The translations under genes were made by a program, and so were the position numbers. Positions 4,954-62,028 of a DNA stretch of 64,000 bases are shown piece by piece. This DNA comes from a bacterium (lineage in GTDB: Bacteria > CLD3 > SB21), in contig JABWCP010000008.1 in assembly GCA_013360215.1 (NCBI GenBank), positions 1 to 64,000 on the forward strand, written 5' to 3'. The notes under the pieces were generated by a model that did not search any database, was not told where the DNA came from, and saw only the letters and a program-made list of their open reading frames with translations. Position 1 is the stretch's first letter. Each line of letters opens with the position of its first letter.

Positions 4954-7326
4954 ATGATCAGGAATTATTTGAAAATCGCGATACGGAATATGCAAAAAAA
5001 TGCTTTGCATACTTTTTTTAACGTATTGGGACTGGCGATGGGTATCGCATGCTGTATCACGGTATATATATTCGTGGATACGATGCTCAATATGGATACC
5101 GCGCATCGCGAGGCCGAACGTATATTCACGATCAATCACGTTCGCCTGATCAATAACCGCGAAGAATTCTGGGGTTTGTCCAAAGGACCGCTTGGCCCGG
5201 CTATTAAAAACGACTTTCCGGAAGTCACTGATTTTATCCGTCTGGATGACAATAATGCCGTGGTCAAGCGCGGCGATCTTATCTTTAACGAAGATATTCG
5301 TTTTGCCGACGCCAATTTCTTTTCCATGTTCACCTTTTCATTGGCTTCCGGTGTCGGCAGCGATCTGACTCAGAAAAACGCCATTTTTTTGAGCGAAGAA
5401 AAAGCGCTGAAATATTTTGGCGATCAAAATCCTGTCGGTCAAACGTTGACTTTGATTTTTGAAGGCGAAAAACGTTTGGAGTTTGTCGTCAAAGGTGTGG
5501 CCAAAAAATTTCCCCGCAACACCAGTTTCGCATTCAACTTTCTCGTCAATTACGAAAACATCAAAGATATTTACCCCCAAGCGGATCGCTGGACTTACAA
5601 CGTCAGCGCTACATTTATCAAGCTGCATCGTCCGGAAGATGCGTTCAAAGTAGAACAGGGGCTTTCCCGATATTTGGCGCTTCAAAATGAAAGCAATCCC
5701 AATCAGCCCGCGCAGCGTTTTTATCTCGACAATCTGCTCACGATGTCTAAAAATTCGTGGCAGGTACGCGGTGATATTTCCGGCGGTACCAATCCGCACG
5801 GCATTTACACACTGACTTTCATCGCCGCACTGGTCATGCTGATGGCCTGCTTTAACTATATCAATATAGCCGTGGCCTCGGCGGCACGTCGTTTTAAAGA
5901 AATCGGAATTCGCAAAGTCGTCGGCGGAACCCGCGGGCAACTCGTCAAACAATTTCTGACAGAAAATTTTATTACCACGCTGACGGCTTTAGGTTTAGGT
6001 ATCGTGTTTGCAGAAACTCTTACCATACCATTTTTTAATTCCATCATACAAGGCAACACGGTATTAGCGTTTGATATTTCCGCTGATCTGCGCGTTGTTA
6101 TTTTTTTAGCCGTACTGACCTCTTCGATCGGACTTTTAGCAGGGCTGTATCCGTCGTTGTACATGAGTTCGTTCAAACCTGTTAACATTCTCAAAGATGT
6201 TCAAAAAATAGACGGCAACCGTTGGTTGGGTAAAACGCTTCTCGTATTACAATTTTCCATTTCACTTTTTGCGGTCATCGCCGGCATTATTTTTACACAA
6301 AACGCCGAATACATCAAAACTTTGGATTACGGCTACGAAGATGATCAGATCGTCGCTTTGTATTTCAAACAATCCGCGCAGTTTCATCAATTTGAACAAA
6401 AAATACGGCAGGACTCGAGAATTCACGCCATCGCCGGTTCCGCGCATCACGCCGGACGCAATATCATGGGAAATGTCGTTTATGAATCCAACGGTGCGCC
6501 GTCCCAAGCTAACGTCATGCGCGTGGGTTCCGACTACATACAGACTTTGGCTTTGCGCATGAAACAAGGACGCGCTTTTGATCGTGCGATGACGACCGAC
6601 GCTGAAAATAGCGCCATCGTCAATGCGACCTTAGTCAAGGCACAAGGATGGACGGAACCTATAGGACAGCGCCTCAAAATGAACGACAAAGAATTGACTG
6701 TCGTCGGTGTCGTGGAAGATTTTTTTTACCGTTCGTACCACCGCGCCATAGACCCTTGTATCCTGACGATGATACCGGACGACGAATACCGTTTCATGTC
6801 CATCAAAGTAGCGCCGGAACACGTTTTGTCTATTCGTCCGTTATTGGAATCAACATGGCACGAGATTTTGCCGGACGAACCGTTTGACATGATTTATCAA
6901 AATGAAATTTTTCTGGAAGATCTGACGGAGGATGAGCAAGTAAAAAACGTGTTTCTGTATGTCGCCATCATGACCTTAATGATCGCCGCGATGGGGTTAT
7001 TTGCTTTGGTATCGCTATCCATCGCCAAACGGACGAAAGAAATCGGTATTCGCAAAGTACTGGGCGCATCCGTAGCGCACGTGATACACCTTGTCAATCG
7101 GGATTTCTATTGGCTGATCGGTATTGCTTCGGTCATTATTTTTCCGATCGCATTTTTTCTGCTTACCAATCTGCTTAATAGTATTTATGCCGTGCATGTT
7201 GATATCACGGCATTACCCTTCATACTCAGCGTATTGATATTCGGTCTGGTGGCAGCCATCACAATCGGCATGCGGGTATATGGCGTCGCGAAGGAAAACC
7301 CCGTACATGCTTTGAAGTATGAATAA
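4954..7326 (+). CDS. ABC permease, double MacB_PCD+FtsX (paralogue 1/12)
   Basis: Two R.KEIGIRKV.G motifs, 2x4 TM pattern, C-terminal NPVHALKYE. Confidence 0.93.
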   Translation: MIRNYLKIAIRNMQKNALHTFFNVLGLAMGIACCITVYIFVDTMLNMDTAHREAERIFTINHVRLINNREEFWGLSKGPLGPAIKNDFPEVTDFIRLDDNNAVVKRGDLIFNEDIRFADANFFSMFTFSLASGVGSDLTQKNAIFLSEEKALKYFGDQNPVGQTLTLIFEGEKRLEFVVKGVAKKFPRNTSFAFNFLVNYENIKDIYPQADRWTYNVSATFIKLHRPEDAFKVEQGLSRYLALQNESNPNQPAQRFYLDNLLTMSKNSWQVRGDISGGTNPHGIYTLTFIAALVMLMACFNYINIAVASAARRFKEIGIRKVVGGTRGQLVKQFLTENFITTLTALGLGIVFAETLTIPFFNSIIQGNTVLAFDISADLRVVIFLAVLTSSIGLLAGLYPSLYMSSFKPVNILKDVQKIDGNRWLGKTLLVLQFSISLFAVIAGIIFTQNAEYIKTLDYGYEDDQIVALYFKQSAQFHQFEQKIRQDSRIHAIAGSAHHAGRNIMGNVVYESNGAPSQANVMRVGSDYIQTLALRMKQGRAFDRAMTTDAENSAIVNATLVKAQGWTEPIGQRLKMNDKELTVVGVVEDFFYRSYHRAIDPCILTMIPDDEYRFMSIKVAPEHVLSIRPLLESTWHEILPDEPFDMIYQNEIFLEDLTEDEQVKNVFLYVAIMTLMIAAMGLFALVSLSIAKRTKEIGIRKVLGASVAHVIHLVNRDFYWLIGIASVIIFPIAFFLLTNLLNSIYAVHVDITALPFILSVLIFGLVAAITIGMRVYGVAKENPVHALKYE

Positions 7327-53110: not shown

Positions 53111-54166
53111 TCAGTTCGCCCCCGTCGGCGCATCATAATATTTACTTTTGATCCACAACGCAACGCGAACGAGGCTTACCAAAACGGGCACCTCGACCAA
53201 TGGACCGATCACGGCAGCAAACGCTGCACCGGATGAGATACCGAAAACCGCTATGGCAACGGCGATCGCCAGTTCAAAATTATTGCTCGCCGCGGTAAAC
53301 GAGAGCGTAGCCGACTCGGCATAGTCCGCACCGCTGCGACGGCTGAGATAAAAAGAAATCAAAAACATCACGACAAAATAGATCACCAGAGGAACGGCGA
53401 TGCGCAAAACATCGAACGGAATCGTTACGATATACTCACCTTTGAGCGAAAACATAACCACGATCGTAAACAGCAACGCAATCAATGTCAGCGGCGATAT
53501 TTTGGGAATAAATTTTTCATGATACCAAACCCGACCTTTAGCTTTTAATAAAATCATCCGCGTAAGCATCCCGGCTAAAAAAGGAATTCCAAGATAGATA
53601 AATACGCTTTCGGCGATCTGCATGATCGTGATATCCACCGCAAACGCTTGTAATCCGAGCATGGAGGGAAACAACGTCAAAAAGAGATACGCATACACCG
53701 GGAAAAACAAAACTTGGAAAATGGAATTAAAAGCAACCAGACCCGCCGCGTACTCCGTATCACCATGCGCAAGTTCATTCCACACGATAACCATAGCGAT
53801 ACAGCGTGCAAGTCCGATCATGATCAGGCCGGCCATATATTCCGGATAATCGCGGAGAAATACGACCGCCAGCAAAAACATAAACACGGGGCCGATCAAC
53901 CAGTTTTGAACGAGCGACAGAAACAAAACTTTTTTATTCCGAAAAACATCCGCGAGTTCTTCGTATTTGACTTTGGCCAGCGGCGGATACATCATCAGAA
54001 TCAACCCTACGGCGATAGGAATATTGGTCGTGCCGGATTGGAACCGGTTCCAGAATCCAACGATGGGCGGAAACAAATAGCCTGAAAAAACGCCGATCAA
54101 CATGGCGATAAAAATCCACAACGTCAGATACCGGTCTATAAATGAAAGTTTACTGATCTTTTCCAT
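53111..54166 (-). CDS. acr3: ACR3 family arsenite efflux transporter
   Basis: [51 protein letters not shown] track start 54190. Confidence 0.96.
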
Positions 54167-54190
54167 AGTGAATCTTGCGTGTGGCATCAC

Positions 54191-54613
54191 TTATCGAAGT
54201 GACTTTTGATAAAATGCAAAAAAGTCTTTTTTAATTTCATCACGGATGCGGCGAAATTCCTTCATCACATGTTCTTCTGCCCCAGAAGCCTCCGCTGGAT
54301 CATCAAACCCAATGTGCAATCGGTGGCTCACGGTTCCCGTAAAAACAGGGCACTGTTCTTGGGCATTACCGCATACGGTGATGACATAGTCAAACGGCTT
54401 ATCCAAAAAAAGATCGGTGCTTTTGGGATAGTTACCGCTGAGATCAATTCCAATCTCGCCCATTACCTTGACCGCCTTCGGATGCACTTGAGATGAAGGC
54501 CGTGTACCTGCGGAATACACCTCAAGCGAAGCATCAAATGATTTAAGAAACCCTTCGGCCATTTGACTGCGGCAGGAATTCCCGGTACAAAGGATTAAGA
54601 CACGTTTTTTCAT
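54191..54613 (-). CDS. arsC: thioredoxin-coupled arsenate reductase (LMW-PTP fold)
   Basis: LCTGNSCRSQMAEG, ITVC....CP, FDDP. Confidence 0.93.
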   Translation of the reverse strand: MKKRVLILCTGNSCRSQMAEGFLKSFDASLEVYSAGTRPSSQVHPKAVKVMGEIGIDLSGNYPKSTDLFLDKPFDYVITVCGNAQEQCPVFTGTVSHRLHIGFDDPAEASGAEEHVMKEFRRIRDEIKKDFFAFYQKSLR

Positions 54614-54632
54614 AAACACTACCTATTAATAT

Positions 54633-54654
54633 TAATTCGTTATATTACGAAATA
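54633..54654. promoter_or_regulatory. second ArsR-operator-like palindrome upstream of arsC
   Basis: TTCGT-TATATT-ACGAA, near copy of the site upstream of arsR. Confidence 0.55.
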
Positions 54655-54999
54655 TTATAAACACGCTATCATTTTGGGTGCTTGTATTTTTTTTACATCC
54701 GACTGTACCTGCGCCGTATCATTGAGCGCTGTATGAAGCAATATACGTAGCGCGGTTATTTCCGGATACAGAGGTTTCGTATTCAAACTATAATACACCC
54801 AACGGCCTTTTTTCTCTTCTTTTATATAGGCATTTTTTTTCAAAATTTTCAAATGCTGCGAAACGGTGGACGGCGCCAATTTTAAGACGTCCCGTATTTC
54901 ACATACACACAACGTACGTTGCTCCAGCATTTTGAGAATGCGGAGCCTGTTAGGATCGGAAAGCGCTTTGAATACTTCGGCGTAATTTTGAATGGTCAT
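54655..54999 (-). CDS. arsR: ArsR/SmtB family repressor
   Basis: FKALSDPNRLRIL, LCVCEI, STVSQHLKIL. Confidence 0.93.
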   Translation of the reverse strand: MTIQNYAEVFKALSDPNRLRILKMLEQRTLCVCEIRDVLKLAPSTVSQHLKILKKNAYIKEEKKGRWVYYSLNTKPLYPEITALRILLHTALNDTAQVQSDVKKIQAPKMIACL

Positions 55000-55001
55000 A
55001 T

Positions 55002-55023
55002 TAATTCGTTTATTAACGAATTA
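55002..55023. promoter_or_regulatory. ArsR operator candidate
   Basis: Perfect inverted repeat TAATTCGTT-TATT-AACGAATTA immediately upstream of arsR. Confidence 0.65.
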
Positions 55024-55087
55024 TAATAATCCAACCTCTTCAAAAAATCAATTCGTTTTTTGTGATACCGATTATTAGAAGTAGTGC

Positions 55088-55117
55088 TTGACAATACGAT
55101 ACGAACTGTTCTAATTT
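55088..55117 (+). promoter_or_regulatory. sigma-70-type promoter
   Basis: TTGACA-N18-TAATTT ending 5 nt before ATG 55123. Confidence 0.5.
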
Positions 55118-55122
55118 ACGTC

Positions 55123-55473
55123 ATGCAACGGATTTTTAAAGCTTCATTGTTTTTCACTGTTTTCGTTTTATTAAGCATTGCTTCGCATACTTATTCGGCC
55201 AGCCAACAAAACGAAAACCGTTCCCCGCATAAAACAGCACAAGAGCCGGCCTGGTCATCATTAGATCAGCGTGACGGTTTATTTTTTCTTTCATCGTCCC
55301 GCGAAGAAACTGCATCCCAATTAAAAGAAACACGCCATAAAGCGTGGATTCTGCCTGCACTACCTGTTTCATTTATTACGTACCGCAAATACCTCGATTT
55401 TTTTCAACTTTCACTGGCCCACAATTTTCTCCTCGGGCATACGACAGGTCTTCGCGCCCCGCCGATCTGCTGA
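55123..55473 (+). CDS. putative secretion-monitoring ribosome-arrest leader peptide (signal peptide + C-terminal RAPP)
   Basis: MQRIFKASLFFTVFVLLSIASHTYSA signal; ends GLRAPPIC*; ORF track start 55084. Confidence 0.65.
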   Translation: MQRIFKASLFFTVFVLLSIASHTYSASQQNENRSPHKTAQEPAWSSLDQRDGLFFLSSSREETASQLKETRHKAWILPALPVSFITYRKYLDFFQLSLAHNFLLGHTTGLRAPPIC

Positions 55474-55568
55474 CATCTCCCCCTCTATAAATCATTTATC
55501 GGCCACCCGGTGTGGCTGAGCCGGCACAGCTTCATGCCATCCGTGGTGGTGTTTCTCACGGAGGTACT

Positions 55569-55682
55569 ATGAGTTTTTCAACCGATGTGCTCACCAAGAT
55601 CGTTGTGATCGCCCTATCGATCACAATTTTCGGCGTGTTTGTACATCTCTATATCAAGTCCGGAAAATCTGAAAAAAAATGA
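55569..55682 (+). CDS. 37-aa single-TM small protein (absent from ORF track)
   Basis: GGAGGT SD; MSFSTDVLTKIVVIALSITIFGVFVHLYIKSGKSEKK*. Confidence 0.7.
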   Translation: MSFSTDVLTKIVVIALSITIFGVFVHLYIKSGKSEKK

Positions 55683-55702
55683 CATGAAACGGAGTATATA
55701 TT

Positions 55703-55987
55703 ATGTCAATCTCTCAACCCGAATCGCGCCCTTTGATCAGCATTACGGAATTATTCAATTCCGATCCGGAATGGGTCGTGAAGCGTGATAAAGCTATTAA
55801 GAAACTGTACGACGGCAATACGCAGGAATTCAATGCGTTCATGTCCAAACTGGAGCCCATGCGCGACTGGAAAGACGTGATGGACGCCGTCGAAGCCGAG
55901 TTTATGCGTAAAAAAATCAGACAAGACAGCAAAGAAGCAACCGGTCTTACGGATGTGCTTTTCAAACGATACTTCCCCTCGTATTAG
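55703..55987 (+). CDS. hypothetical soluble helical protein
   Basis: 94-aa ORF, GGAG SD, followed by a terminator. Confidence 0.78.
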   Translation: MSISQPESRPLISITELFNSDPEWVVKRDKAIKKLYDGNTQEFNAFMSKLEPMRDWKDVMDAVEAEFMRKKIRQDSKEATGLTDVLFKRYFPSY

Positions 55988-56016
55988 TCCGTCTGGATAT
56001 ATTCATTTCTTACTCC

Positions 56017-56055
56017 GAGCTGCGCGAATAATTTGCGCAGCTCTTTTTATTTTTT
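56017..56055 (+). terminator. intrinsic terminator
   Basis: GAGCTGCGCGAA-TAA-TTTGCGCAGCTC followed by a T tract. Confidence 0.85.
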
Positions 56056-56521: not shown

Positions 56522-58468
56522 ATGAAAAAAATCACGTTACCGGCGTTTATCTTTCCTTGCGCATTGATTCTGCTCGATTATGTAACCAATAAATCAACCG
56601 TTACTTTTAATACCAACCGTATCCTGGCGTATACCAACGGGTTTATCGGTTCTATCGCGTTTTGGACTTTTTATCAATTAGCTTCGGCGTACACGCTGCA
56701 TCATTATCGCGAACACAAACGGGTTCGCATGCTTTTCATTGTCGGGCAAATTCTTTTTGCCTTGGTATTTACCGCTACGATTTCCGTAAGCCTCGGATAT
56801 TATTATGAGTTTGGTAACTTGCCCAATAAGTTTGCCGTGGCGTATCTGATGGATGAATGGACTGACGCGGTTAGTCTTATTACCGGTTATATTTCTATGC
56901 CGCTGATGTTTCTTCTGATGTCCGTATTCGCAGCGATATATGCCTGCCACTATTTTGTGATACGTCATATTGCACAACGTATGCACACGAGTACCCCGGC
57001 TTCGGTGAAGAAAGTCTTAGCGATTTTGGCAATCATCACCGCGGCATCGTTGCTCGGCGGTTTTTTTTCCAAAAAACTGTCCGCTACGTTACCGATGGAC
57101 TTCGGGAGTTTACAAGCCGTCGCAAAATATGCGTTCGGCGATAAGTCGGGAAAAGGCTATTCTGTTCCTCAACGAATTATTTTACCGGAGAATCGGACCG
57201 CCCCAAAACCATCCAATGTACTGTTGATCATCAACGAAACGTTGCGCGCCGATTTTATCGGTTATCAGACATTGGCTAATCCGATTCCGCCGGCTTCACG
57301 CATGACCGACGCAATCGCTTCTGACAGCTTGTCTTTCGTATTCAAACGCGCACGCAGCAATTCGAGTTCTACCCGTGTCAGCTTGCCTGCTATTCTTATG
57401 GGCATGATTCCCACAACCGCCACTTCCGCCGATTATCATCGCATGCCGACGCTTTGGAATGTGTCTAAAGCGCTGGGTTACCGCACTTTTTTTATCACGC
57501 CGCAAAACTGGGATTGGCAAAATCTGGATGTATTTTTTCTCAATAAACAAGTGGATCAAAGTATAACGGCTAAAGATATCGGCCCGCCTTACGTCAATAA
57601 TGCGGGCGTGGAGGATCGCCGAATATTGGATTACACTAATTCTATTTTTCAGGAATTTAAGAAAAACAAAAACCCGTTTTTTGGCGTTATTCAGTTTAAC
57701 TGCACGCACCAGCCGTATAATCCCGGCGACCCGCATACGGCGTTATCACCTAACTCAACCGAGCGGTATGCCGCGGCGGTACAATATTTGGACAGTTTGA
57801 TTGCGCAGATATACGTTCAACTCAATGAAGCCGGCCTGAAAGACGAAACGCTGATCATCGTGACAAGCGATCATGGTGAGAATTTTAAGCATCGCGGTCT
57901 TGCTCGATTGAATAATCTGTACGACGAAGTCATATGCATTCCATTATGGGTAAGTTATCCGAGCCAATATTATCAAACCCCCGAAGGTAAGGCGCGATTT
58001 CAAGCCTGGAAACAAAATGAATACAGTACGGTACAAAATGCCGATATTTTCCCGACCTTGTTAAGTTACTGGGGTGTTTACAAAACCTCACTTCAGGGTT
58101 ATTCTTATCAGGGAATGCGGTGGGAAGATCCGGCGGACTCCCTGCGTATCCTGAGCGGTACAAATACCGGCGATATCCGAAAGTGGAATCGTGAAGAGTT
58201 TTTTTTATTACGCCAACATGTGAAATTTTTAGCAACGGATAAAGCGGGGCCACAGATTTATAATTTGCAATCCGACCCGTATGAAGAACACAACTTGTGG
58301 GACGACTTATCTTTTAGAGAAGCGCATCGGCCATGGATACATCAATATATATCCGACCATGCGGTGCTCGCAGAATTGGCCAAGCGAATGAAAATTAATT
58401 TGGAAAACGAAGCCGCCACACAACCATCGGACTCTTCGCTTTCGCGTGCGGATATTGATTTGAAATAA
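56522..58468 (+). CDS. membrane-anchored sulfatase-like hydrolase/transferase (LtaS/EptA superfamily)
   Basis: ~5 N-terminal TMs, NVLLIINETLRAD, SST, THQPY, VTSDHGE, DIFPT. Confidence 0.82.
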   Translation: MKKITLPAFIFPCALILLDYVTNKSTVTFNTNRILAYTNGFIGSIAFWTFYQLASAYTLHHYREHKRVRMLFIVGQILFALVFTATISVSLGYYYEFGNLPNKFAVAYLMDEWTDAVSLITGYISMPLMFLLMSVFAAIYACHYFVIRHIAQRMHTSTPASVKKVLAILAIITAASLLGGFFSKKLSATLPMDFGSLQAVAKYAFGDKSGKGYSVPQRIILPENRTAPKPSNVLLIINETLRADFIGYQTLANPIPPASRMTDAIASDSLSFVFKRARSNSSSTRVSLPAILMGMIPTTATSADYHRMPTLWNVSKALGYRTFFITPQNWDWQNLDVFFLNKQVDQSITAKDIGPPYVNNAGVEDRRILDYTNSIFQEFKKNKNPFFGVIQFNCTHQPYNPGDPHTALSPNSTERYAAAVQYLDSLIAQIYVQLNEAGLKDETLIIVTSDHGENFKHRGLARLNNLYDEVICIPLWVSYPSQYYQTPEGKARFQAWKQNEYSTVQNADIFPTLLSYWGVYKTSLQGYSYQGMRWEDPADSLRILSGTNTGDIRKWNREEFFLLRQHVKFLATDKAGPQIYNLQSDPYEEHNLWDDLSFREAHRPWIHQYISDHAVLAELAKRMKINLENEAATQPSDSSLSRADIDLK

Positions 58469-60139: not shown

Positions 60140-61453
60140 ATGAGTGCTATTGTTGATATGATACGCAAAGCCGGTGTGGTCGGCGCCGGCGGAGCCGGTT
60201 TTCCGGCACACATCAAAGCCGGTTCCACCGTGGATACCGTAATCGCTAACGGCGCCGAATGCGAGCCGTTGATTCACAAAGATTACGAATTGATGCTGCA
60301 TTATCCGGCGGAAGTCGTGCGTGGCGTCGAACTCGTCATGCAATCCACGGGCGCCAAAGAAGGCATCCTCGGCGTCAAAGAAAAAAACACCAAAGCCATC
60401 GAAGCACTACAGAAACATCTCAAACCCGGCATACGGCTTCATCTGCTGGGTGATTTTTATCCTTCGGGCGACGAATATATCCTCGTATACGAAAGCACCA
60501 AACGTCTGATACCTCCGCAGGGCATACCGCTTCATGTCGGCTGCGTGGTCAATAATGTCGAAACGTTTTACAACATCGCGCAGGCCGAAAAAGGCGAAGC
60601 CGTGACGGAAAAATTTATCTCCGTTTCCGGCGCGGTAAAAAAACCGTTCACCGGGATTGTTCCCGTCGGTGCGACATTTGCCGATGTGATCGCCATGGCC
60701 GGCGGCATTACAGAAAAAGAATACGGTGTTTTTGTCTCCGGGATCATGATGGGCAAACTGACCTTTGATCTGGATCAACCCATCACCAAAACCTGCGCCG
60801 GATTGATCGTACTTCCCAAAGAGCATAAACTCGTGACGCGAAAATCTCTGCCGGAGGAATCCATGCATCGTATCGGCAAATCGGCTTGCGATCAATGCAG
60901 CTATTGTACCGAACTGTGCCCCCGTTATATTTTGGGTTACGATATTCAGCCGCACAAAGTGATGCGCAGTCTCGGATTTACCAAAACCGGTACGGATTAT
61001 TGGAACCAATTTGCTTCTTTGTGTTGTGCCTGCGGCTTATGCACGCTGTATGCATGCCCGGAAAGTCTTTTCCCCAAAGAAGCTTGCGATCAAAGCAAAC
61101 GTGTGATGAAAGAACAAAACATCCAATGGTCAGGCCCGGTGGAAATACAACCGCATCCGATGTACGAAGGGCGCCGCACCCCGCTCAAAATGCTGGTGAA
61201 ACGTCTTGGCGTCACGGATTACGACATACACGCCCCTTATTCCGATCGTCAAGCAACCCCATTTAAACGTGTGATCCTGCCGCTGCAGCAGCACGTGGGG
61301 CAAAAAGCCGAAGCGGTTATTCGCACGGGTGAATCGGTAAAACGGGGGCAGCTTATCGCCGATGTCCCGCAGGATAAAATGGGCGCACCGATCCACGCCA
61401 GCATTGACGGTACGGCACGCGTCGAAGCGGATCGCATCCTTATCGAATCTTAA
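60140..61453 (+). CDS. PduS/RnfC-like flavin Fe-S oxidoreductase
   Basis: GVVGAGGAGFP, NGAECEPL, YPSGDE, two 4Fe-4S motifs, C-terminal PLQQHVG...IHASIDG. Confidence 0.9.
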   Translation: MSAIVDMIRKAGVVGAGGAGFPAHIKAGSTVDTVIANGAECEPLIHKDYELMLHYPAEVVRGVELVMQSTGAKEGILGVKEKNTKAIEALQKHLKPGIRLHLLGDFYPSGDEYILVYESTKRLIPPQGIPLHVGCVVNNVETFYNIAQAEKGEAVTEKFISVSGAVKKPFTGIVPVGATFADVIAMAGGITEKEYGVFVSGIMMGKLTFDLDQPITKTCAGLIVLPKEHKLVTRKSLPEESMHRIGKSACDQCSYCTELCPRYILGYDIQPHKVMRSLGFTKTGTDYWNQFASLCCACGLCTLYACPESLFPKEACDQSKRVMKEQNIQWSGPVEIQPHPMYEGRRTPLKMLVKRLGVTDYDIHAPYSDRQATPFKRVILPLQQHVGQKAEAVIRTGESVKRGQLIADVPQDKMGAPIHASIDGTARVEADRILIES

Positions 61454-61476: not shown

Positions 61477-62028
61477 ATGACTATGAATTCTATCGGATTG
61501 ATCGAACTCGGCAGTATTGCAGCGGGATTTGACACGGCGGATGCGATGCTCAAAGCGGCTAACGTTAACATCTTACTGGCACGTTCGATTTGTTCAGGCA
61601 AATACATCGTGATGGTGGGCGGTGAAGTCGCGGCGGTGCAATCCAGCATTGATGCCGGTGCAGCACAAAGCCGCGGTTCGGTCATAGACACTTTTGTTAT
61701 TCCCAATGTGCACCCGGAAGTTTTTCCTGCGCTCTCCGGAGCGGGCCGATCCGAACTGCGCGAATCGCTGGGCATTATCGAATCGTTTTCTGTAGCTTCT
61801 TTGATCGAAGCGGCCGATGCCGCCGTTAAAGCGGCCAATGTCAAATTGCTGGAAATTCGCCTCGCTATGGCGCTCGGCGGTAAAGCTTTTCTCACCATGA
61901 CCGGTGAAGTCGCCGCCGTTCAGGCCGCTGTGGACGCGGGTTCACGTGTCGTAGCCGAAAAAGGACTACTCGTCAACAAAGTCGTCATACCGGGTCCGCG
62001 ACCGGAACTCCTGACCGAAGTAGTCTGA
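61477..62028 (+). CDS. PduT-like tandem BMC-domain shell protein (BMC-T)
   Basis: Two BMC repeats (SIGLIEL..ADAMLKAA..ICSGK; SLGIIES..AADAAVKAA..LGGK) with the PduT-type Cys. Confidence 0.92.
   Translation: MTMNSIGLIELGSIAAGFDTADAMLKAANVNILLARSICSGKYIVMVGGEVAAVQSSIDAGAAQSRGSVIDTFVIPNVHPEVFPALSGAGRSELRESLGIIESFSVASLIEAADAAVKAANVKLLEIRLAMALGGKAFLTMTGEVAAVQAAVDAGSRVVAEKGLLVNKVVIPGPRPELLTEVV

Follow-up and report, generated by a model that had tools for sequence, protein, structure and literature searches.

What does a ribosome-arrest leader control when the genes behind it belong to no known family? The question is raised by a stretch of 64,000 nucleotides (nt) of a bacterial contig (JABWCP010000008.1, positions 1 to 64,000, assembly GCA_013360215.1, GTDB lineage Bacteria; CLD3; SB21), referred to here at its full length of 64 kb as the window. 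In it a 116-amino-acid (aa) leader open reading frame (ORF) with the residues RAPP near its C-terminus is followed by a 37-aa ORF and a 94-aa ORF, these three genes making up the unit under discussion (coordinates are those of the whole window, the unit lying on its plus strand). Comparison with its relatives provides good support for regarding the leader as a predicted arrest peptide of the RAPP type. The reading favoured here, with a probability of about 0.62, is that it heads a three-gene operon whose expression would be set by the stall, preferably through coupling to Rho.

RAPP and RGPP are reported to be depleted from proteomes and over-represented close to the C-terminal end of small membrane or exported proteins whose genes precede others of diverse kinds, with stalling in vitro described for seven of seven tested Streptomyces RAPP/RGPP examples and for CruR (Fujiwara 2025, PMC12992588). 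As described there, the analysis of downstream genes required a predicted function and excluded targets annotated as 'unknown', so that a cassette with two uncharacterised small targets lies outside its description (PMC12992588). The window leader is otherwise like the class as reported, being shorter than 300 aa, with a localization signal, RAPP or RGPP near the C-terminus, a downstream gene on the same strand and a divergent sequence elsewhere (PMC12992588). A literature search did not find the cassette described; its leaders might still be in the supplementary tables of PMC12992588.

A conserved cassette with a leader ending in RAPP

With the 94-aa family as bait, a genome collection gave 12 loci (L001-L012) from 41 pattern matches, L012 being a false match, since its matched frame is interrupted by stops and falls within a minus-strand ORF of 1063 aa. 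The 11 genuine loci (L001-L011) all come from genome bins, eight labelled Bacteroidota and three simply 'bacterium', and each of them keeps the same trio on one strand, namely a signal-bearing RAPP or RGPP leader, then a 32-44-aa ORF with one helix and then the 94-aa gene (11/11), so that the RAPP leaders are syntenic with the same two partners throughout these relatives. Together with the window these loci make up the 12 cassettes compared below. The genes beyond the trio vary by locus (dihydrolipoyl dehydrogenase-like, EngB-like GTPase, pyridoxal phosphate (PLP) decarboxylase, RpiB and others), which identifies the trio as the conserved unit. In L002 an extra 122-aa ORF (5489-5857), with its own Shine-Dalgarno (SD) sequence, lies between the leader and the small-peptide gene; it has two N-terminal CxxC pairs, a hydrophobic C-terminal half and no Pfam match.

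The 94-aa protein (11 relatives, 56-99% identity) is better conserved than the leader. Fifteen leaders were aligned (window, P0003, the 11 locus leaders, P0015 and P0016), P0001 and P0002, with 94% and 87% identity to the window leader, being left out. P0015 is identical to the leader of L001, P0016 is nearly identical to that of L010 and the leaders of L003 and L004 are near-duplicates, leaving about 11 independent sequences. Identity to the window leader is 17-31%, with the exception of P0003 (65%). A word-indexed search with the leader returned three relatives, each ending in RAPP plus two residues, and a search of 1.84 billion representatives with the leader-alignment profile returned three proteins, all of this leader family, with no detectable relationship to ApdA, ApdP or RQH. 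The leader has no Pfam (E <= 0.1) or NCBIfam family match.

Within this divergent protein conservation is concentrated on the motif. The aligned leaders have a mean column identity of 37%; no column besides R111, P113 and P114 is invariant among the 15, L104, G105 and A112 being nearly so. The window and 10 loci have RAPP and L008 has RGPP, in each case two to six residues ahead of the stop, so the original prediction, which would have fallen had RAPP not been conserved in orthologues, stands on this point. The codons vary from locus to locus (Arg CGC, CGG, CGA, CGT or AGA; Ala GCC, GCT, GCG or GCA; Pro CCG, CCC, CCT or CCA), and such synonymous differences in R-x-P-P point to selection on the peptide and not on the RNA. 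The motif is also rare in this DNA. Six-frame translation of the window and of the 12 fetched loci gives 951 ORFs of 50 aa or more; R[AG]PP is found in 13 of them, 12 being the leaders, where it falls within the last 12 residues in every case, and across the six frames of the 64-kb window the leader is the sole ORF of at least 50 aa with RAPP, RGPP, RAGP or RAPG. Direct reading bears out the 116-aa ORF with its hydrophobic N-terminus and C-terminal RAPP. The original prediction had placed GLRAPP at 55453-55464, two codons before the stop; these positions hold RAPP only, the G and L being encoded at 55447-55452, while the two intervening sense codons (ATC TGC) are as described.

The N-terminal signal peptide that had been proposed is likewise seen across the family, in that a hydrophobic core preceded by one or two K/R is found in all 15 aligned leaders (Kyte-Doolittle heuristic, means 1.89-2.84), the best 11-aa stretch in the window being LFFTVFVLLSI (mean 2.84). 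The distance from the end of this core to the first, P-site, proline is 88-97 residues in 15/15 leaders. An AF2 model of the window leader gives helices at residues 2-31 and 79-107, a predicted local distance difference test score (pLDDT) below 50 for residues 36-76, a predicted template modelling score (pTM) of 0.25 and no globular fold, so that the anatomy, as modelled, is that of a regulatory nascent peptide and not of a folded periplasmic protein.

In having an export signal at the N-terminus, a RAPP-like core at the C-terminus and, ahead of that core, a variable 'regulator' segment, the leader is like ApdA, ApdP and RQH as these have been described (PMC7897499, PMC10987492, PMC10951233). 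Those leaders are reported upstream of secA, secDF or yidC (Sakiyama 2021; Fujiwara 2024), whereas no sec or yidC gene lies downstream of or near this one. None of sec, yidC and tonB was found in the 20 kb examined around the window cassette, and no export gene was found among the scanned neighbours at 10 loci. Of the four properties reported to define candidate monitoring substrates (Fujiwara 2024, PMC10987492), the leader shows the signal, the conserved C-terminus and the signal-stall distance, and lacks the sec or yidC gene downstream.

The two targets likewise match no known family. The 37-aa peptide is kept in 12/12 cassettes, with F24 and L27 invariant and K30 nearly so, and in all 12 the N flank of its helix has a net charge of 0 or -1 and the C flank one of +1 to +4, a distribution that by the positive-inside rule predicts an N-out/C-in topology; it has no Pfam, NCBIfam, PADLOC or PHROG match. 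The 94-aa protein, with a pI of 6.3 and no hydrophobic stretch, is soluble, and its family, taken as the window protein and 11 relatives, has an invariant C-terminal block with the consensus KEATGLTDVLFKRYFPSY. Its AF2 model has five helices (pLDDT 83, pTM 0.66) and no PDB or BFVD fold match in Foldseek at E <= 0.001, the family profile finds nothing better than E 0.48 among PDB sequences, no Pfam, NCBIfam, PADLOC or PHROG family rises above noise and a search of the ESM Atlas gave unnamed clusters only, with no usable named match. Longer fused relatives were absent from the 7998 candidates scored, which is weak evidence. Pterin_4a was considered for this family and rejected as noise (3 of 12 members, best E 9.4e-4), as were ten other families matched by one to three members each. 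Homology and structure searches thus agree with the original claim that the targets are not recognisable Sec, YidC or TonB genes. The gap between the small-peptide gene and the 94-aa gene is 3-30 nt at the loci read, suggesting that the two proteins are made together. The features of the unit are collected in Table 1; the 37-aa single-helix ORF, the 94-aa ORF and the terminator were all found in place as claimed.

Table 1. Features of the three-gene unit in the window
Feature	Position	Strand	Basis or remark
Promoter-like element, CTTGACA, 18-nt gap, TAATTT	55087-55118	+	-35 TTGACA 55089-55094; -10-like TAATTT 55113-55118
Alternative leader start, in-frame GTG	55084	+	would add 13 residues, giving 129 aa
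Leader ORF, 116 aa, ending TTGLRAPPIC and stop	ATG 55123 to TGA 55471-55473	+	read directly
Predicted export signal, residues 1-26, MQRIFKASLFFTVFVLLSIASHTYSA	55123-55200	+	2 basic residues, hydrophobic core 9-19; Kyte-Doolittle heuristic
Second conserved motif, F54-K73, consensus FLSSxKEDxxxQxxxQKxK	55282-55341	+	15-leader alignment; weaker than RAPP
RAPP codons CGC GCC CCG CCG	55453-55464	+	expected stall with Pro113 (55459-55461) in P site and Pro114 (55462-55464) in A site
G-free pyrimidine-rich tract, 28 nt, 36% C	55473-55500	+	begins at last base of leader stop; includes ATCTCC
Untranslated spacer, 95 nt	55474-55568	+	leader stop to 37-aa ORF
Candidate anti-SD ATCTCC	55475-55480	+	could pair with GGAGGT
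GC-rich imperfect hairpin, then GUUUCUCAC	55502-55550	+	minimum free energy fold; not conserved in other loci
Candidate anti-SD TCCGTG	55540-55545	+	complement CACGGA 55557-55562
SD GGAGGT, for 37-aa ORF	55560-55565	+	sequence
37-aa ORF, one hydrophobic helix	55569-55682	+	hydropathy
94-aa ORF	55703-55987	+	own SD GGAG at 55691-55694; 20-nt gap after 37-aa ORF
Intrinsic terminator closing the unit, stem followed by TTTTTATTTT	56017-56053	+	12-bp stem (7 GC pairs; 56017-56043), 3-nt loop, T-rich tail

Possible routes from a stalled ribosome to the downstream genes

In the reading favoured here the leader would be made with its N-terminal export signal until the ribosome reaches Arg111-Ala112-Pro113, where, with Pro114-tRNA in the A site, peptide-bond formation would stall as in ApdA, ApdP and CruR, the geometry being that reported from the ApdA and ApdP structures (Morici 2024, PMC10951233). 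By then about 110 residues would have been made and the export signal would already be outside the ribosome. The exposed nascent chain would set how long the stall lasts, either through pulling by the export machinery or through contact of a second conserved motif near the tunnel exit, and the duration of the stall would in turn set the expression of the predicted N-out/C-in membrane peptide and of the 94-aa cytoplasmic helical protein. The coupling preferred is transcriptional, in which the stalled ribosome would abut a pyrimidine-rich tract with more C than G and hinder the loading of Rho so that transcription continues, while once the leader is finished and the ribosome gone Rho would terminate transcription within the untranslated spacer. 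Comparison shows the anatomy of the unit, the conservation of cassette and motif and the bias in composition, whereas we infer that stalling takes place, what releases it, in which direction it regulates and that Rho is involved.

The precedent for such a coupling comes from two systems. In cruR-bfrG-bp2921 of Bordetella pertussis, arrest of CruR at RAPP is reported to block Rho-dependent termination, and CruR has a second motif at a conserved spacing (Roy 2022, PMC9426467; PMC12360218). In both tnaC and CruR, Rho is described as using a C-rich, G-poor and unstructured tract beside the leader stall site (PMC12360218). The window is like CruR in that the RNA near the stall is unstructured and rich in pyrimidines and C, arrest having been proposed to block Rho in CruR, and like tnaC-tnaAB in that the ribosome would be held at the end of the leader beside a candidate Rho loading site in a long untranslated spacer (PMC12360218). 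It is unlike tnaC in that TnaC stalls at the stop codon on tryptophan and is not exported (PMC12360218), whereas elongation arrest is predicted here two to six codons earlier.

On account of its composition, the tract beginning with the final base of the leader stop could be a rut-like site at which Rho loads. G-free runs of at least 28 nt occur in 1.0% of nearby windows of the same length and in 2.3% of 129 other post-stop regions. When 52 nt at each of the 12 leaders (from 12 before to 40 after the stop) were compared with the 129 other post-stop regions of the same DNA, C minus G had a median of 6.5 at the leaders, with C exceeding G in 12/12, against 0 elsewhere (Mann-Whitney p ~1e-5), the pyrimidine fraction one of 0.62 against 0.48 (p ~2e-5) and the count of YC dimers one of 8 against 5 (p 0.001). 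G-free runs were also longer at the leaders (p 0.00085), reaching 28, 29 and 45 nt in the window, L001 and L005 respectively. With a C-rich, G-poor tract at the predicted stall site and the precedent of tnaC and CruR, Rho attenuation relieved by the stalled ribosome is the mechanism that we infer to be favoured.

Several points weigh against this reading. The composition p-values are overstated because related loci are counted as independent, in four of the 12 loci (L006, L007, L008 and L010) the G-free runs do not exceed the background median, and the bias could be explained in part by the Ser/Phe/Leu/Pro-rich tails that follow RAPP. Shielding would be only partial since the tract starts at the leading edge of the modelled footprint, and the use of Rho in this way by the carrier bacteria is assumed by analogy. 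As to the leader, the carriers are all uncultured and arrest is predicted from comparison; RAPP is reported to be insufficient by itself, needing a permissive upstream context, and can be species-specific in its action (PMC12992588; PMC10951233). The export signal is predicted solely from the hydropathy heuristic, and the start of the leader is uncertain (ATG 55123 or GTG 55084), with the promoter-like element leaving almost no 5′ untranslated region (UTR). Finally, none of the results tie either downstream protein to export or to another process.

An alternative, possible although somewhat doubtful, is that the leader is a sensor of the CruR type, in which binding of a ligand or partner by the second motif, and not bulk export activity, would set the duration of arrest; the partner could be a small molecule, the surface of the translocon or ribosome, or the 94-aa product itself. 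The second motif lies 40-59 residues before the P-site proline, which, allowing for the predicted helix at 79-107, is near the tunnel exit, and despite the low identity of the leaders there is not one indel between it and RAPP in 15/15, the columns from about 68 to RAPP being gap-free. CruR is described with the same two-motif architecture, a spacing conserved to one or two residues and relief without the signal peptide (PMC9426467), and there is further likeness in that an exported leader, of about 120-145 aa, comes first in an operon of three genes, with RAPP two to three residues before the stop and the second motif at a fixed spacing (PMC9426467; PMC12360218). In this respect the fixed-spacing motif brings to mind CruR, which senses a ligand, more than a simple monitor of Sec. 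However, the likeness to CruR is incomplete, the window leader being of another phylum with no TonB-dependent transporter as a target, no DUF2946 match (Pfam, E <= 0.1) and no CXXC motif, which in CruR stands about 45 residues before RAPP. No cysteine is conserved in the 15-leader alignment and the second motif has no Cys/His pattern hinting at a metal site, the ligand or partner is purely hypothetical, and the retention of the export signal by all leaders indicates that export matters.

Slightly less probable is the translational switch at the centre of the original prediction, in which, as in SecM, GGAGGT would be held by ATCTCC or TCCGTG until a ribosome at RAPP frees it and permits initiation. 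SecM, MifM, VemP and one RGPP leader upstream of secDF2 are reported to use such a switch (PMC10987492, PMC10951233), and the window shares with SecM-secA an exported leader with a C-terminal R-A-x-P stall that would control the next gene. It differs in having RAPP and not RAGP, in a target that is not secA and in that an SD-sequestering stem-loop, though possible, finds no support here. The SD and both candidate anti-SD elements are indeed present where they had been placed, ATCTCC:GGAGGU closes the minimum free energy (MFE) fold both for 55440-55600 and for the spacer taken by itself, and SD-like purine runs precede most small ORFs of the related loci. Yet of the structured 95-nt spacer that had been claimed only the length stands, as it folds no more strongly than shuffled sequence (MFE -30.6 kcal/mol, z = -1.19, with 23/200 shuffles folding at least as well), and the same is true of 55440-55600 (z = -0.24, 79/200), where shifting the 5′ boundary of the fold leads the SD to pair with another partner.

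Nor does the modelled ribosome open the site. Keeping the simulated footprint unpaired changed the accessibility of the window ribosome binding site (RBS) from 0.49 to 0.46 for a stalled and to 0.44 for a terminating ribosome, with no consistent direction over the 12 loci, and ATCTCC begins 16 nt past the first P-site base, at or beyond the edge of the footprint. Duplexes between the stall region and the RBS are ordinary (median rank 0.36 against control windows, none below 0.05). Spacers range from 51 to 456 nt, and the 11 that were aligned (L002 omitted) share no block besides the RAPP codons and the start codon, so that the pairing is not conserved. The extra gene of L002 between leader and small ORF would be tolerated by a leader-proximal mechanism, not by a specific SD pairing. 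Judged on these features, Rho-type coupling appears to fit what is conserved better than the SD switch does. Rfam gave no match near its gathering score, and a scan for intrinsic terminators found a weak site in the window spacer, another in the extra gene of L002 and none in the spacers of the other 10 loci.

It is improbable that the leader is an ordinary small exported protein, with a RAPP tail retained for some purpose outside translation, for example in structure or processing, and three genes that are merely co-transcribed, for although RAPP by itself is reported not always to cause arrest (PMC12992588) and periplasmic, membrane and cytoplasmic products could form one envelope-spanning complex, the sole invariant residues of this fast-evolving protein make up exactly an arrest motif, at the very end of the protein, where a ribosome stalled on it would sit beside the intergenic region, the motif is otherwise absent from the ORFs of the window, the leader has no predicted globular fold and a long untranslated spacer follows it in every locus.

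Two bolder versions of the arrest reading may be mentioned. The 37-aa peptide and its 94-aa partner would be an undescribed accessory of export or membrane insertion in SD-using uncultured Bacteroidota, under feedback by their own monitoring substrate, which at present seems unlikely. Alternatively, the arrest might serve mainly to tether the operon mRNA to the translocon through the exported nascent chain of the leader; the 37-aa protein by itself lacks the length needed to be targeted co-translationally, and tethering would let its synthesis occur at the membrane. Regulation by arrest and tethering of the mRNA could coexist.

Promoter and neighbouring genes

The TTGACA hexamer reported for the leader promoter is present, although a strict consensus promoter scan made no plus-strand call there, and the Bacteroidia-type -7 motif TAnnTTTG was found in only one of the 12 upstream regions. 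A looser pattern, CTTG[AC][ACT][AT]-N14-18-TAnnnT, occurs at most 80 nt upstream of the leader start in 8/12 cassettes compared with 16/1847 background windows. In the window the element ends 5 nt from the leader ATG, which would make the 5′ UTR of the leader very short or absent. A promoter-like CTTG[AC]..-N17-18-TAnnnT also precedes the leaders of L001, L003, L004, L005, L007, L008 and L010, and across the window and those seven loci the pattern ends 5-18 nt before the presumed leader starts. Such closeness points either to 5′ UTRs that are very short or lacking, or to start codons wrongly placed in some of the loci.

Upstream of the cassette the window has a minus-strand ars operon (53111-54999) encoding an ArsR-family repressor (54655-54999), an arsenate reductase of the low-molecular-weight phosphatase type (ArsC, 54191-54619) and an ACR3/SBF-family permease (53111-54190). 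An inverted repeat of 9 nt without mismatches, TAATTCGTT-N4-AACGAATTA, occupies 55002-55023, directly ahead of the divergent arsR (minus strand, start at 54999), and 27 nt beyond the repeat a third half-site, AATTCGTT, is found at 55050-55057. The repeat is likely the ArsR operator, sharing the intergenic region with the putative leader promoter, and ArsR might influence the cassette in the window genome only. The side taken up by the ars operon here is occupied in related loci by a gene for a PLP-dependent decarboxylase or by others. A small FmdB-type zinc-ribbon protein (MPxYEFxC...) is encoded just upstream of the cassette in L005 (4942-5160), L009 (5107-5340) and L010 (from 3583), the FmdB-type ORF of L010 being in one frame with a PLP decarboxylase.

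On the other side, the terminator is followed by a ferredoxin gene, then by a gene for a 648-aa membrane-anchored sulfatase-family protein (56522-58468; Pfam Sulfatase, E 5e-32) and then by rpiB. In L002 the cassette is followed, in order, by RpiB, tryptophan 2,3-dioxygenase and RnfC-like, with no ORF of at least 90 aa at the sulfatase position, and as such the sulfatase gene looks like an insertion in the window genome. Further downstream lie an RnfC/Nuo51-like flavoprotein (60140-61453) and a tandem bacterial microcompartment (BMC)-domain shell protein (61477-62028), a pair that hints at a bacterial microcompartment locus.

Two small proteins behind a probable stalling leader

Leaders with RAPP or RGPP have recently become known ahead of many kinds of gene, and unannotated targets such as those found here were set aside in the published survey. 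The type of arrest leader is therefore already known; what is new is the two novel targets, the second motif at its fixed spacing and the little-studied host group. The cassette is compact, conserved across divergent genomes and points to two small proteins of novel families, the larger without a fold match, which the cell evidently regulates with care. Judging from the conserved sequence features, it is probably a stalling-based switch over genes of no known family. By analogy with known leaders, the targets should act on whatever the leader senses, and if this is the state of export or of the envelope they could represent a new translocation or envelope factor from a branch of the Bacteroidota that has been little studied. 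With its fixed-spacing motif and Rho-site-like tract the cassette may also offer a second example, beside CruR, of how arrest is relieved and coupled to transcription.

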